IMG/VR virus record: IMGVR_UViG_3300037245_003208 | Origin: an uncultured virus (IMG/VR IMGVR_UViG_3300037245_003208) | Taxonomy: Duplodnaviria; Heunggongvirae; Uroviricota; Caudoviricetes | DNA length: 27,136 nt | Strand: one strand, 5' to 3' | Part shown: in pieces, positions 9,698-27,136 of the stretch | How positions within the stretch are numbered: the stretch's first letter is position 1 | Layout of the letters: the number at the start of each line of letters is the position of its first letter | Made by a program: the position numbers and the translations under genes | The notes under the pieces: model-generated | Database searches by the model: none | The model's input: only the letters and a program-made list of their open reading frames with translations | What the model was told of the DNA's origin: nothing

Positions 9698-10636
9698 ATG
9701 AATTTAAACAATGCACATGTCATGAAGGACATTGATGAATTTGTGGGGAACAAAACGCTCAAAACGGCCATAATCTCTATTTTGGAGCGTGAGGTAGATA
9801 TACCTCAAGTATACCTTTTCCATGGAGCAAGTGGTTGCGGAAAGAGTGCCCTTGCTCGTGTTTTTGGGGAATTTTTTGGTGTTGAATCTCTGAATTATAA
9901 GGCAACAAATGCTGGCGATGATCGTACATTAGTAGCCATGCGAGAGATTATAAAGAGTGCGAATTTTGCTCCTTTTGGAGAAAACACATACAGAGTTATT
10001 GTGTTTGAGGAGGCGCACCAGCTTAGACAGGACGCAAAGCAAGCCTTGTTAGATTTTCTTGAGCGCCCTCCTGCACATGTTATGATCGTCTTTACAACCA
10101 CAGACCCAGCCATGTTCCTTAAAGGAACTGCCATGGAGAGAAGATGTTTTATTGGGAAAGTAAATCCAATAACTCCAGGACAGATGAACAAGTATCTTAA
10201 AGATGTTTTGAATACTTCTCACTGGAGTGCTGGTGTGATTTCTGCTCTAATTAAAAAAGCTGCAGGAAGTATAGGTCACATGCTAATGCTTGTGGATTCC
10301 ATTAAGGATATAGGAAATCAAGAAGCTATTGATTTTTTAGATGATGTTATCTCAATAGAAACTCCTCCTGACATTGCAAATTTATGCAGATGTTTGCTAA
10401 AAGGGGATAGTTGGGAAAATGTCAGCGATCTATTGCAAAATTTAAACGGCGATGGTGAATCATTGAGGTTCCCCATCAAAAATTATTTGTCTAAAGTTCT
10501 TTTAAATGATCATAGTGAATTCTGTGCAATGATGTTGCAGCAGTTTTTACCTTCTTTTATAAGTTCAGGTAAAGAGGGGTTAATTGCTGCCTGTTATGAG
10601 TGCAGTCTTCTTTATGCAGAATATGAAGGAGTTTGA
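9698..10636 (+). CDS. dnaX: clamp loader AAA+ ATPase, DNA Pol III gamma/tau-like
   Basis: YLFHGASGCGKS Walker A; VIVFEEAHQL Walker B variant; ALLDFLERPP; ERRC arginine-finger (SRC) motif. Confidence 0.85.
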   Translation: MNLNNAHVMKDIDEFVGNKTLKTAIISILEREVDIPQVYLFHGASGCGKSALARVFGEFFGVESLNYKATNAGDDRTLVAMREIIKSANFAPFGENTYRVIVFEEAHQLRQDAKQALLDFLERPPAHVMIVFTTTDPAMFLKGTAMERRCFIGKVNPITPGQMNKYLKDVLNTSHWSAGVISALIKKAAGSIGHMLMLVDSIKDIGNQEAIDFLDDVISIETPPDIANLCRCLLKGDSWENVSDLLQNLNGDGESLRFPIKNYLSKVLLNDHSEFCAMMLQQFLPSFISSGKEGLIAACYECSLLYAEYEGV

Positions 10637-10639
10637 TAC

Positions 10640-11008
10640 ATGAAATTTTTAAAAATAGAAAAAGGCCCATTCCAATTTGCAATTATCAGATCAGGATGGC
10701 TCAGCCATGAGGAGAATGGTTATTATTATATGATTTTGGAAAATGCAGAAGATGGTAATTTAGCACGAGAATGTGCCACATTGAAAAAAGATGCAATGAT
10801 TGAAAAATACCCCTACACGCAGAAGTGGTTTGATTCTGAGGAAGTGAATATCGCTGCCCCTGATTATACTGTGAAACAATTGAAAAATCTCATTAATGAG
10901 GTAGAAAATTGTTTAGTTTGTGCGGCAATTGCTGACCCACTGGAAGTTTGTCAAAACTCATTAAAGATCATAGAGGACGCAAATATTGCAAAGGAGGACA
11001 GGTCATGA
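10640..11008 (+). CDS. hypothetical protein
   Basis: GAAGGAG RBS at the end of the upstream gene. Confidence 0.7.
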   Translation: MKFLKIEKGPFQFAIIRSGWLSHEENGYYYMILENAEDGNLARECATLKKDAMIEKYPYTQKWFDSEEVNIAAPDYTVKQLKNLINEVENCLVCAAIADPLEVCQNSLKIIEDANIAKEDRS

Positions 11009-24049: not shown

Positions 24050-24448
24050 TTACATGCCTAAAAAGCCGCCCAGCCCGCCTACTTGTCCCAGCATTCCAGC
24101 ACCTGTGTCCTTGAATGCCCCAACTTGAGGACACATTGCTACCACATCCTCTACAAGCTCTTTAGCTTTTTCATCTGTAATCTTGGGTTGTTGTTTCATG
24201 ACCCATTCAACCACACTGTTAAATTTAGATTCACCAGTTAGAGGCGTTTGTCCTAACTTCAACATGCTTGCACTTAATTCATCAAAATGAAAAACACGAT
24301 TTAGAATCTTACTGGCGAATTCTGCCTCTTTCCCAGCAAGGATATTAAGTTGATACTTCCTCACCAGATAACCAACTGCCATGGTTCCTAAAGACATCAT
24401 AGCCGCTTTTAACAATGGGTACAGATAAAGTGCAAATAAAGCTTCCAT
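24050..24448 (-). CDS. membrane protein, LL-H-type holin-like
   Basis: GAGGAGAG RBS; single N-terminal hydrophobic helix; GESKFNSVVEWV...IT...ELVEDVV pattern. Confidence 0.55.
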   Translation of the reverse strand: MEALFALYLYPLLKAAMMSLGTMAVGYLVRKYQLNILAGKEAEFASKILNRVFHFDELSASMLKLGQTPLTGESKFNSVVEWVMKQQPKITDEKAKELVEDVVAMCPQVGAFKDTGAGMLGQVGGLGGFLGM

Positions 24449-24501
24449 TCGTTACTCTCCTCATTAATAATTAATGTTGTACTTCTTATATGTTACTGCA
24501 T

Positions 24502-24723
24502 TTAAATGCGTATGCCGTGAGCTGCTGCATTAGCATTAATCCATTTTAAGAATCCTGCAGCATGTTTTTGTTCATCTGTATGAGCAGCTTCTATTAATTT
24601 TTGTAACTCTGGGCATGCTACAACCTCTAAACTCTCTTTGTAGTACGCAACTCCTTCCATTTCCTCTTTAAGGGATTCTGTAGCTATCCCCATATCTGAT
24701 TCCACATTCTCATAATTAGCCAT
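24502..24723 (-). CDS. half-ferritin (two-helix, EncFtn-like) protein
   Basis: SLKEEMEGVAYY...CPELQKLI...DEQKHAAGFLKWI parallels EncFtn EELEAVDWY...DPEL..IL...EEKEHAAMxLEW. Confidence 0.75.
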   Translation of the reverse strand: MANYENVESDMGIATESLKEEMEGVAYYKESLEVVACPELQKLIEAAHTDEQKHAAGFLKWINANAAAHGIRI

Positions 24724-24724
24724 T

Positions 24725-25084
24725 TTATTCTCCTACCCCTCTTAAAAATTTAGTTACTATATCAGATTTAACTGTCACTTTGCCATGGCATACACAGCAT
24801 TCATCCCCCATTTTATCATTGACTAAAACAGCATCAATTTTACAATACGGACACCTGAATTTATGTCCCATAATATAACCTTGATGTTCTGGAATAATAT
24901 CTGCGTCAGTCACTAAACGAACTTCTTCCTCTTCATCCTCGTAAGGATTTTTGGTGGGCGGATGAACAGGACAAGGAACAAATGGAAAACTTATGAACTC
25001 ATCCTTGCAAGTACAACGTGACCCCTCTTCTGCATTTTTATCTTTATTTGGGATTTTTTCTATTTCTGCATTTTTATCGACCAT
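24725..25084 (-). CDS. Cys-rich zinc-ribbon protein
   Basis: AAGGA RBS; CTC...CPVH, CPYC and CCVC. Confidence 0.7.
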   Translation of the reverse strand: MVDKNAEIEKIPNKDKNAEEGSRCTCKDEFISFPFVPCPVHPPTKNPYEDEEEEVRLVTDADIIPEHQGYIMGHKFRCPYCKIDAVLVNDKMGDECCVCHGKVTVKSDIVTKFLRGVGE

Positions 25085-25105
25085 TAACTTTAATTCCTTT
25101 TAGAA

Positions 25106-25139
25106 TTGCAAGGGGAGCGTAAATAAACTTCCCTTGCAA
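25106..25139 (-). other. 12-bp intergenic stem-loop
   Basis: TTGCAAGGGGAG-N10-CTTCCCTTGCAA with one mismatch, just upstream of the RBS of 24725..25084. Confidence 0.55.
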
Positions 25140-25206
25140 AATTTACAAAGTTAATTACATGACTTAAAATTCTACACCATTTTTCAGGCTCTGTCCAAGG
25201 GACAGA

Positions 25207-25485
25207 TTACTCCTTTGCTGCTGGTTTTTTAACAGTGGATTTTTTCGCTTTAGTAACTTCTACTTCAGCGCAAGGCCCACATGTTGCTCCAGCATTAAGA
25301 AGACCTGGACAGGCATTTTCACTAACATTAATTGTGTTGTCATTGATACACATATCCATTTTCCCGCTAACGCGTTCTGTGTCTGGGCAACATCTCTCAT
25401 CGCACCCTCCACATATTGCACCAGCACCAAGCATTGATTGCACATCAGCCTGGGGAACTTCAATGGTTTCATTTTCGAAACACAT
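25207..25485 (-). CDS. two-repeat Cys-rich protein; probably the readthrough extension of 25525..26040
   Basis: Repeats MCFENETIEVPQADVQSMLGAGAICGGC and MCINDNTINVSENACPGLLNAGATCGPC; Lys-rich tail; frame stays open upstream to the TGA at 25525. Confidence 0.75.
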   Translation of the reverse strand: MCFENETIEVPQADVQSMLGAGAICGGCDERCCPDTERVSGKMDMCINDNTINVSENACPGLLNAGATCGPCAEVEVTKAKKSTVKKPAAKE

Positions 25486-25524
25486 AATTACTGTTTCACC
25501 TGTCTGTCCTGGACAAGGAGCCGT

Positions 25525-26040
25525 TCAAGAGTGGTGTTTATTACTTCGGAGAAAGATTATTTCTCTTTCTGCCTTGTCAAGCTCTCTTGCAATAGTACGA
25601 GCTTCAACAGCTTTAATTTCGGCTGTTAAAGCTGCAGTATTTTTGCAGTTTTCGAGCTTCAATTCACAACAACAAGCAGCCGCTGCAGCAGCATCAGCAA
25701 CAGCTTGAGCTCTTACAGCCGCAATTTGGTCATTGGTTCTTAACTCTGCCCTGAATTGATTATCCTTGACATCATTAAACTGCCGTGTTCTTTCAGCACC
25801 TTCGAAAGCATCTCTGATGCTGTCAAGTCCAAGTCCAAGAACTGAACGGGTACAATCATTATCATTTTCACTGGCCTGCTGGTTTCTGTTGATACGCACA
25901 GCATTGCTGGCATCATCAGCAAAAGGACGACCGTAGTAGTTTCCACCACCCCAGTTACCTCCACCGCCACCACGACCACCACCAAATGCAGACATTGCCT
26001 GTGTTAAAAGAGCATCACTTGTGCTAAAACCGTTTTCCAT
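25525..26040 (-). CDS. Gly-rich / CCC-motif coiled-coil phage protein of unknown function
   Basis: TTGGAGGT RBS before ATG 26040 (MENGFSTSD); GGGRGGGGGNWGGG; AAACCCELKL followed by a coiled coil; ends in TGA. Confidence 0.8.
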   Translation of the reverse strand: MENGFSTSDALLTQAMSAFGGGRGGGGGNWGGGNYYGRPFADDASNAVRINRNQQASENDNDCTRSVLGLGLDSIRDAFEGAERTRQFNDVKDNQFRAELRTNDQIAAVRAQAVADAAAAAACCCELKLENCKNTAALTAEIKAVEARTIARELDKAEREIIFLRSNKHHS

Positions 26041-26260
26041 AATAACTACCTCCAATTAAGAATTATATTAATTAAAGCCCCGTATGGGCAGTAATCCCTG
26101 TTAAGTCCTTTAACAGGCATATTTCTCAGTTTTTGGCATTTGAAAACGTATGTGACGCTGTTAATTGTGTTTCTGAAAATCCTTTTTATTAGATTTGTGT
26201 TTTTATATTACACAAGCAACACTAAGCTGCTCTTAATAACTATGTTTAATTTACTGGTTT

Positions 26261-27136
26261 TTATAAACCTTCAAAATATTCTGCTGATGGTTTTGAATTT
26301 ATTTCAATATCCCCAGATAAATATACTCCACTTGTCAGAAATCCAGCATACCAAAAAAATTTATTTTCTGTATATGTTAGGCCAACTATTGGCACAGTCA
26401 AACTATTAGGTACCGCAGTAAAAGTCTGAAGACCCCCATTAAGTATTATTCCATCGACCTTAAAATAATTACTGTGTTCTGTATCACCACCGCCCCCACC
26501 CATGCGAATATTAAATTTTAATTTCCATAGGCCATTAGAAGTTTGATAAGGGGTTCCTGTAGCCTTTATAACCTCCCAATTGGCGGGCAAATCAGTCAAA
26601 CTCAAATCATACTGCTTCCACTCCAACTGCTTCTTCAAATCTTGTAAATTTGCAGCGGTCATTCCTGATGTATCTACACCGCCATTTGGTTTTAGATTAC
26701 CATTTGGGATTGTTACATCCCTTGAAGAACTTATATTTAATACAGTTGTGGCATCTTTAATAATATTAAATTCTGAACTACCTTCAAGTTTCCATCCTGC
26801 AACACCTGAAGAAAATAAGTTTAAAATTGCTTTATTGCCATCACTTGAATTAATTCTAACTGTAACATCTCCAGAATCTTTGAATTGTCCCATATCAGAG
26901 CCAGCGGCTACTCCAACTCCCAACGTCCCAGAAGAAATGAGCATATTACCATTTAAAGTGACATTAACACCTGAAGGGGTAAAAGCAGCTAAAATAGCAT
27001 CTAAATTCTCACCATCTGTTGCAACATCTCTGCCATCTATGTAACCAATTGTTGTTAAATTTCCTGTTATGTCCAATCCTGCGTTTGCTGTAAGTAATTC
27101 TCCAACAGTCAATCTGTTAGTCATAGATATGTCGCC
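26261..27136 (-). CDS. tail fibre / receptor-binding protein, C-terminal part (probably truncated by the window)
   Basis: IDGRDVATDGENLDAI fibre-like motif; Gly/Asn/Thr-rich beta repeats; beta-rich tip; frame open past ATG 27124 to the window edge. Confidence 0.6.
   Translation of the reverse strand, partial: GDISMTNRLTVGELLTANAGLDITGNLTTIGYIDGRDVATDGENLDAILAAFTPSGVNVTLNGNMLISSGTLGVGVAAGSDMGQFKDSGDVTVRINSSDGNKAILNLFSSGVAGWKLEGSSEFNIIKDATTVLNISSSRDVTIPNGNLKPNGGVDTSGMTAANLQDLKKQLEWKQYDLSLTDLPANWEVIKATGTPYQTSNGLWKLKFNIRMGGGGGDTEHSNYFKVDGIILNGGLQTFTAVPNSLTVPIVGLTYTENKFFWYAGFLTSGVYLSGDIEINSKPSAEYFEGL

Follow-up and report, generated by a model that had tools for sequence, protein, structure and literature searches.

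An uncultured virus of the Caudoviricetes (IMG/VR record IMGVR_UViG_3300037245_003208) carries, on the minus strand of the 27,136-nucleotide stretch analysed here (hereafter the window), a gene for a 171-residue protein with a CCC motif, the TGA stop codon of which is followed directly and in the same frame by a Cys-rich coding sequence. The question raised by this locus is whether that TGA (25527-25525) simply separates two genes or is read as sense by some ribosomes and, if so, by which means. A previous examination of the letters of the window (the sequence-only reading) had proposed either programmed readthrough or a phage selenoprotein. The comparison with relatives presented here supports the former and speaks against the latter: the TGA is probably a programmed leaky stop, at which near-cognate readthrough of UGA would give rise to a minor isoform of 277 residues. 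The elements of the locus are the following.

26049..26053, minus strand: Shine-Dalgarno sequence GGAGG of the core gene, 8 nt 5' of ATG 26040
25528..26040, minus strand: core gene (CCC protein), 171 codons, ATG at 26040, last residues ...SNKHHS
25525..25527, minus strand: in-frame TGA, the proposed leaky stop, in the context UCU UGA A
25486..25524, minus strand: 13-codon spacer TAPCPGQTGETVI, free of ATG, GTG and TTG, the N-terminal part of Cys-repeat 1
25496..25519, minus strand: hairpin proposed as similar to a selenocysteine insertion sequence (SECIS), present in the minimum-energy fold, not above chance and not conserved
25483..25485, minus strand: ATG, encoding Met186 in the long form; the position is hydrophobic and conserved in the domain, and the codon may also act as internal start
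25393..25524, minus strand: Cys-rich small domain, repeat 1 (beta-hairpin plus helix), from alignments, an AlphaFold2 (AF2) model and a profile search
25258..25392, minus strand: Cys-rich small domain, repeat 2, from alignments and the AF2 model
25207..25257, minus strand: Lys-rich C-terminal tail and final TAA (25207-25209), with a predicted local distance difference test (pLDDT) value below 50

As had been described, one continuous minus-strand frame crosses the TGA and reaches the TAA at 25207. It stays open for 105 codons after the TGA (the 13 of the spacer, the ATG at 25485 and 91 more), for a total of 277 codons (P0001) if the TGA is read as sense. The TGA itself is present in a separate assembly of a marine sediment metagenome run, identical in sequence and with a depth of about 15; that run is the probable source of the window, and the assembly is therefore no independent sample. 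No other public DNA run, and no RNA run, was listed with the stretch. In the window by itself, the presence of an in-frame neighbour behind a TGA counts for little as evidence, although only 2 of 2000 shuffles kept the 105 codons open; stops number 2 and 14 in the other sense frames.

Related loci were obtained from viral contigs (11, by an alignment-based scan, which was needed since a scan of the same contigs with the single protein found no loci), from metagenomes (29) and through the extension (3). After leaving out three that run off their contigs (L023, L028 and L035) and collapsing the junction duplicates (L007, L017, L019 and L043), there were, with the window, 37 distinct junctions, a few of which belong to close relatives (L037/L039, L015/L020). 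All 16 TGA junctions were followed by an open in-frame extension of 21-184 codons (21, 30, 51, 62, 63, 73, 83, 88, 89, 89, 99, 104, 105, 114, 144 and 184). In contrast, the 21 junctions with TAA (11) or TAG (10) had 0-40 open in-frame codons, so that an in-frame extension of more than 40 codons was found in 0/21 (one-sided Mann-Whitney p 9.3e-7 for 16 versus 20 junctions; L044, a later find with 22 codons, does not enter the test). None of the 37 had a sense codon at the junction. By our own arithmetic, TGA accounts for about a quarter of the stops (9 of 38 open reading frames (ORFs) in the window and 26 of 93 in the related genome G001), and both 16/16 and 0/21 are far from this expectation, even though the loci are not fully independent. 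The comparative pattern of TGA and extension is far beyond chance.

The TGA state was scattered over a maximum-likelihood tree of the core protein: it requires 13 changes, of which well-supported branches carry at least 7. Many TAA/TAG loci displayed a terminator-like hairpin directly after the stop (mean z -1.56). It was also observed that TGA is absent from all 21 family members without the extension, despite ending about a quarter of ORFs.

The small Cys/His domain was found downstream of the core gene in 12 distinct loci. In the TGA loci it was in frame and without any other stop in 10/10 cases, whereas in two TAG loci (L012 and L044) it was encoded by a gene of its own, out of frame and about 140-160 nt further down, with an extra N-terminal domain. 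These free-standing genes lie at 1236-1532 (L012) and 2351-2647 (L044), the latter with AGGAGG 6 nt before its ATG; the proteins P0028 and P0029 are free-standing versions too. Hence, the module appears to resemble an ordinary gene where it is made alone, and to abut the core gene in frame where it follows a TGA. The sequence-only reading had held that homologues ending in TAA or TAG, or with the two ORFs out of frame, would count against readthrough. Some relatives do show these arrangements but, since those with TAA or TAG have no in-frame extension, they strengthen the readthrough reading rather than refute it. A side observation on the free-standing versions (L012, L044, P0028 and P0029) is that the extra N-terminal segment, of about 45 residues and Cys-rich (CCEVPVCLNF...), is not found in the TGA-joined versions; it may replace the covalent link to the core.

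That the domain can function as a protein of its own, as is evident from the separate genes of L012 and L044, is a point in favour of a plain explanation for the window: two ordinary genes, with the TGA always terminating, the Cys-repeat protein produced from ATG 25485 only, perhaps by termination-reinitiation, and a shared frame without meaning. Gene callers do list 75-96-residue forms as separate proteins, and in-frame neighbours after TAA and TAG also arise by chance in the window. The Shine-Dalgarno sequence of ATG 25485 (AGGTG), previously called modest, proved to be of average pairing strength, with a duplex energy of -6.8 kcal/mol against a window median of -7.3 (18 of 30 genes were as strong or stronger) and a distance of 11 nt to the ATG; the GGAGG of the core gene, at -10.7 kcal/mol, is among the strongest in the window. 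Nevertheless, we regard the two-gene explanation as unlikely because it does not account for the conservation of both frame and TGA in 16/16 distinct loci, nor for several properties of the extension as protein.

First, it leaves unexplained a selection at the protein level on codons that have no start. Between the spacer and the equivalent stretch of L042, 2 codons were identical, 8 synonymous and 3 non-synonymous, and the first six codons after the TGA in L004 and L021 differed by 5 synonymous changes and 1 non-synonymous; by these counts, the codons just after the TGA are under protein-level selection. The window spacer, having no ATG, GTG or TTG, offers no start candidate before codon 14 after the TGA. 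Likewise, two ordinary genes do not explain L036, where 99 codons without ATG, GTG or TTG are open after the TGA (matched in openness by 1 of 2000 shuffles, with 9 and 15 stops in the other sense frames). In the extension of L026 the only candidates are two GTG, and no obvious Shine-Dalgarno-like purine run was seen by eye upstream of them.

Second, the product starting at Met186 would be without half of the first strand of the domain and without its CP motif. It had been claimed that repeat 1 begins before its apparent start codon, on the grounds that CPGQTGETVIMC parallels CPDTERVSGKMDMC at the start of repeat 2. The two segments indeed fall in the same columns in two alignments, and other data agree on the earlier beginning: P0028 and P0029 start about 45 residues further upstream and translate the homologous GCPDQTGxMVxLC; profile matches among 1.84 billion representatives usually span domain positions 3-43, including the part before the Met; and AF2 predicts TVIMCF (183-188) as the first strand, so that half of the strand precedes Met186, with KMDMCI as its counterpart in repeat 2. 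Third, the Met before Cys is equally conserved in the internal repeat 2 (KMDMC, KIDMC) and is replaced by Leu in L006, L013 and L027, neither of which is explained by two separate genes. As no initiation is needed in repeat 2, the conservation of this Met there points to a structural role.

The extensions are homologous between loci (L003 versus L027, E 1e-22; L008 versus L026, E 0.003), and at least three module types were found behind the TGA: the His-type small domain, the double Cys-type repeat and a 'VNIDN...K-rich' type; the extension of L036 is acidic and rich in His and Cys. The small domain (a beta-hairpin plus a helix, about 40 residues) has no Pfam model, although it occurs in 5181 cluster representatives at E 0.001 or better and in up to 24 copies per protein. 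In 28 of its top matches it co-occurs with Big_7, FG-GAP, cadherin-like, DUF4114, CarboxypepD_reg and Por_Secre_tail, which are companions typical of surface and secreted proteins. The small domain is a candidate for a new, unannotated extracellular domain family. We also noted that it is often found in long tandem arrays, within proteins of 1000-3700 residues that bear surface-protein domains; outside these phages, the domain type occurs in tandem in large bacterial proteins of the surface or secreted kind. A further observation concerns a second module type, shared by L003 (3484-3700), L008, L022, L026 and L027, which consists of an alternating motif (VINIDIDVN, INITIDNKD, VNVTVNIDNKD, VEVNVNTD and VDIDVIVNFN being variants) followed by a low-complexity sequence rich in Gln/Lys or Ser/Asp.

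If ribosomes do pass the TGA, it could be by insertion of selenocysteine (Sec), with host SelB and tRNA-Sec acting on a SECIS in the codons that follow and Sec placed in a His/Cys-rich linker of metal-binding or redox character. The in-frame UGA has Cys or His close to it in many loci (HHS-U-TAPC in the window; U-GC, U-GRRCGC and U-EGYCRRC elsewhere), in the window a small hairpin, its loop containing GG, begins 8 nt downstream of the UGA, and the source is a marine sediment metagenome. Marine sediment habitats are rich in Sec-using bacteria. However, the structural data do not fit. The hairpin that the sequence-only reading had drawn 6 nt after the UGA does occur in the minimum-energy fold (-7.8 kcal/mol), yet it does not exceed what chance gives (z -0.20, with 74 of 200 shuffles folding as well); the GAAACA/UGUUUC stem proposed around the ATG also exists but is weak (centroid -2.8 kcal/mol, z -0.73). 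The 63-nt stretches from the TGA, examined in 15 TGA loci, had a mean z of -0.50 and no common hairpin position, and the hairpin of the window arises from the codons of a CPGQTG motif, for which L042, with the same peptide motif, pairs different bases. In 16 sources, no Rfam family reached its gathering score; in the window, the SECIS models were without a match even at E up to 10.

Comparison of the proteins was equally unfavourable to Sec. A Cys codon occupies the TGA column in 0/37 junctions, and the relatives without extension end at the TGA position with TAA or TAG. The residues flanking the TGA are variable, and AF2 leaves them unstructured (pLDDT below 50 at 169-173). With the general tRNA model, no tRNA-like gene reached the cut-off in 5 related records (the dedicated tRNA-Sec model was not run). 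Considering that there is no stable or conserved hairpin, no Rfam SECIS match and no Cys homologue, and that the TGA lies in a variable, poorly predicted linker and not in a catalytic motif, the proposal of a phage selenoprotein is not supported, and decoding as Sec seems highly improbable. An equally slight probability goes to a non-canonical or very short SECIS that would be invisible to structure tests. If true, a Sec between the His/Cys-rich tail and the Cys-rich domain would mean phage selenoproteins with a metal-binding or redox joint tied to host selenium. An early MAFFT alignment had placed Cys of homologues in the TGA column; this was discarded as an artefact, as L042 shows that the Cys-rich tail precedes the TGA.

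Efficient decoding of the TGA was also considered, either by an opal suppressor tRNA of phage or host or through a host using code 4 or 25, in which case the long form would be the main product. The sequence-only reading had taken TGA as a true stop elsewhere, citing ATGA couplings at 379 and 13043; both overlaps are present, and the ORFs of the window and of G001 agree with it. Eight other ORFs of the window end in TGA, with the next in-frame stop 1-11 codons further on in 7 of the 8, and for the 26 such ORFs of G001 (complete, 61,424 bp) the median distance to the next stop is 7.5 codons. TGA as a general sense codon is thus excluded for this lineage. A tRNA search of the window (27 kb of the 65.6-kb contig of the virus) and of 5 related phage records, including two that are 100% complete, gave nothing above the cut-off. 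Moreover, nothing would keep a stop that is always read from mutating to a sense codon, and yet no locus shows one. We therefore consider efficient suppression very unlikely, even if a protein with W at the joint (P0205, see below) is what a gene caller set to TGA as Trp would print. In the same connection, we observed that, within window 9698-11008 on the plus strand, the clamp-loader gene ends in TGA-T and that the next ORF (10640-11008) comes one codon later in the same frame. This neighbour is probably an ordinary in-frame gene, with an AAGGAG site of its own and a strong +4U stop context.

P0205 came from a search with the read-through protein of L004. Among the best 120 of 171 matches, 118 proteins were examined, 87 of which had the CCC motif; 86 of these 87 end 48-83 residues after the last CCC. 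The sole exception, P0205 (353 aa, on a 1391-nt contig), unites the core and an extension of the L026/L008 type in one chain, with a Trp exactly at the junction (...HHGGR-W-KCDSEP...). Its DNA was sought in the viral contigs and not found. At the joint there may be a genuine TGG, or else a TGA for which the gene caller printed Trp; both would fit the readthrough reading.

Several results weigh against readthrough and have to be set beside those above. In a phylogenetically conservative test with 7 independent pairs, 5 differed in the expected direction, none in the opposite one and 2 not at all (sign test p 0.0625); such a paired test is weak here and cannot reach significance. Two TGA loci, L010 and L011, have only 30 and 21 open codons, which 8-17% of shuffles reach. 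The relatives that express the domain as a separate gene show that covalent fusion is not obligatory. Given the average strength of the Shine-Dalgarno sequence at ATG 25485, the 92-residue product may also, or instead, be made alone. Finally, a common sequence or structure signal that might stimulate readthrough was sought around the TGAs and not found. As to the immediate context, the +4 base after the 16 TGAs was A in 7, G in 6, C in 2 and U in 1; +4U is reported to reduce readthrough (PMC5289835).

On balance, we believe that leaky termination at the TGA is the most plausible explanation. Most ribosomes would stop there and release the 171-residue CCC protein, and a minority would decode the UGA by means of a near-cognate tRNA of the host (tRNA-Trp, as in E. 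coli, being the likeliest) and continue for 105 codons to yield the 277-residue isoform, with two small Cys-rich domains and a Lys-rich tail. In E. coli, according to PMC11903333, tRNA-Trp wobble-pairs with UGA and accounts for about 80% of the residues inserted at UGA when release factor 2 is weakened. The conservation of the TGA, the translated and selected character of the extension, the ordinary use of TGA elsewhere, the lack of a SECIS and that of tRNAs in the relatives were all computed; near-cognate decoding, its low efficiency and the residue inserted are what we infer. The core protein, which is predicted to be helical and is probably oligomeric, would then contain the long form in sub-stoichiometric amounts, and since the small domain is found together with domains of surface and secreted proteins, a minority of the subunits would display an adhesion-type module. 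Throughout a diverse family of uncultured phages, the UGA would be a fixed joint behind which different C-terminal modules are exchanged. A step further, it could serve as a fixed 'socket' at which phages swap display modules, each new one being tried on a few percent of the subunits; we give this an even chance, which makes it likelier than Sec through a hidden SECIS.

The core protein itself gave few clues. Its conserved N-terminus (MENGFSTSD...) is followed by a disordered, Gly-rich stretch, by a long helical region that contains the CCC motif (invariant in 21 database relatives) and by a His-rich tail (NKHHS). Its relatives have 158-266 residues and all end where the TGA of the window lies. 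The predicted structure comprises a short N-terminal helix, Gly-rich disorder (residues 20-38), about 125 helical residues (helix 43-168, pLDDT about 90) and a Cys- or His-rich tail. The mean pLDDT was 80 and the domains of the extension reached 86-94, but with a predicted template modelling score of only 0.30 it is uncertain how the helices are arranged. In Pfam and PHROGs no family was found for the extension, nor for the core except for two PHROGs of unknown function at E 0.003-0.006. The ESM Atlas returned only viral hypothetical clusters, a sequence search of the PDB no match, Foldseek no match at E 0.001 or better, and VIA-align a best Z of 3.6, with no fold assignable. Similarly, 50,697 phage records searched with the region and the core protein gave no match, and the core gene was not found in a scan of 185,579 prokaryote species genomes. 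The DNA polymerase matched phage records at 25% identity at most, and no cultured relative was found among them.

The plus strand of the window bears a replication and recombination module, with a DnaB-like helicase, a family A DNA polymerase, a sliding clamp and a clamp loader, as well as UvsX/UvsY-like proteins and an SbcCD-like nuclease. The core gene and its extension are part of a short minus-strand block that also holds a 132-residue ORF and the following.

26261-27124, minus strand: tail-fibre-like ORF (PHROG E 1e-4)
24725-25084, minus strand: Cys-rich ORF, 119 residues
24502-24723, minus strand: EncFtn-like/rubrerythrin-like ORF, 73 residues (Pfam EncFtn-like E 1.2e-10, Rubrerythrin E 1.6e-4)

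A scan of 24400-27136 for promoters and terminators gave nothing bearing on the junction. The order of CCC gene, extension and Cys-rich ORF is repeated in relatives, and in L003 the ferritin-like ORF comes next. In the complete relative G001 the cassette lies amid nucleotide-metabolism genes, and its position therefore does not reveal its role. Two further observations were made on these neighbours. The product of 24502-24723 is a mini ferritin-like protein in a phage, and a homologous ORF occupies the same relative position in L003 (4243-4449). Several relatives also encode a Cys-rich protein of about 90-140 residues downstream of CCC gene and extension (24725-25084, minus strand, in the window; 4689-4979 in L001; 3877-4224 in L003; 3513-3935 in L004; 2730-2999 in L044), with a motif CTC...CPxH...CxxC...CxxC that by eye is zinc-ribbon-like; no family assignment was obtained for it beyond a sub-threshold match to DUF6144.

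Should the long isoform exist, proteins of this kind are systematically split or truncated by gene callers, and what the databases list here are proteins of 171 and of 75-96 residues. A leaky UGA would also offer a simple means of fixing the proportion of decorated to plain subunits, and the junction would be an exchange point that joins at least three unrelated module types to one core, a model of how phages try out surface modules. Programmed stop-codon readthrough is textbook knowledge for RNA viruses, and tailed DNA phages are known for frameshifting. A full-text literature search, with subscription journals largely outside its reach, returned no report of programmed UGA readthrough in a tailed phage, and extension by UGA readthrough is hardly documented in DNA phages.

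Among known systems, E. coli fdhF has a UGA and a SECIS hairpin that is read by SelB. Like the present locus, it carries an in-frame UGA within a longer frame and in Cys-rich surroundings. Unlike fdhF, the locus has neither a conserved or unusually stable hairpin, nor a SECIS match, nor Cys homologues, and its homologues stop at that position with TAA or TAG. The same outcome as proposed here, two isoforms in a fixed ratio that share their N-terminal part and of which the longer has a C-terminal module, is known for T7 gene 10A/10B, lambda G/GT and the capsid and tail proteins of Listeria phage PSA, all three being DNA phages that use frameshifting according to PMC8310308. In contrast to these frameshifts, the extension described here is in frame 0 behind a stop and involves no slippery site or change of frame.

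Readthrough in Qbeta has an efficiency of a few percent and inserts Trp. The coat/A1 pair of Qbeta is the closest known system (PMC8310308), in which a leaky UGA ends an abundant core protein, the coat. Qbeta is a single-stranded RNA phage, unlike the phage studied here, which has a DNA genome of about 60 kb with a T4-like replication module. Other differences are that the core is here not a coat protein, that the extension is modular and differs between relatives, and that the present system is known from sequence alone. What both would have in common is a leaky in-frame UGA at which a minority of near-cognate readthrough adds a C-terminal domain with no need of a SECIS.

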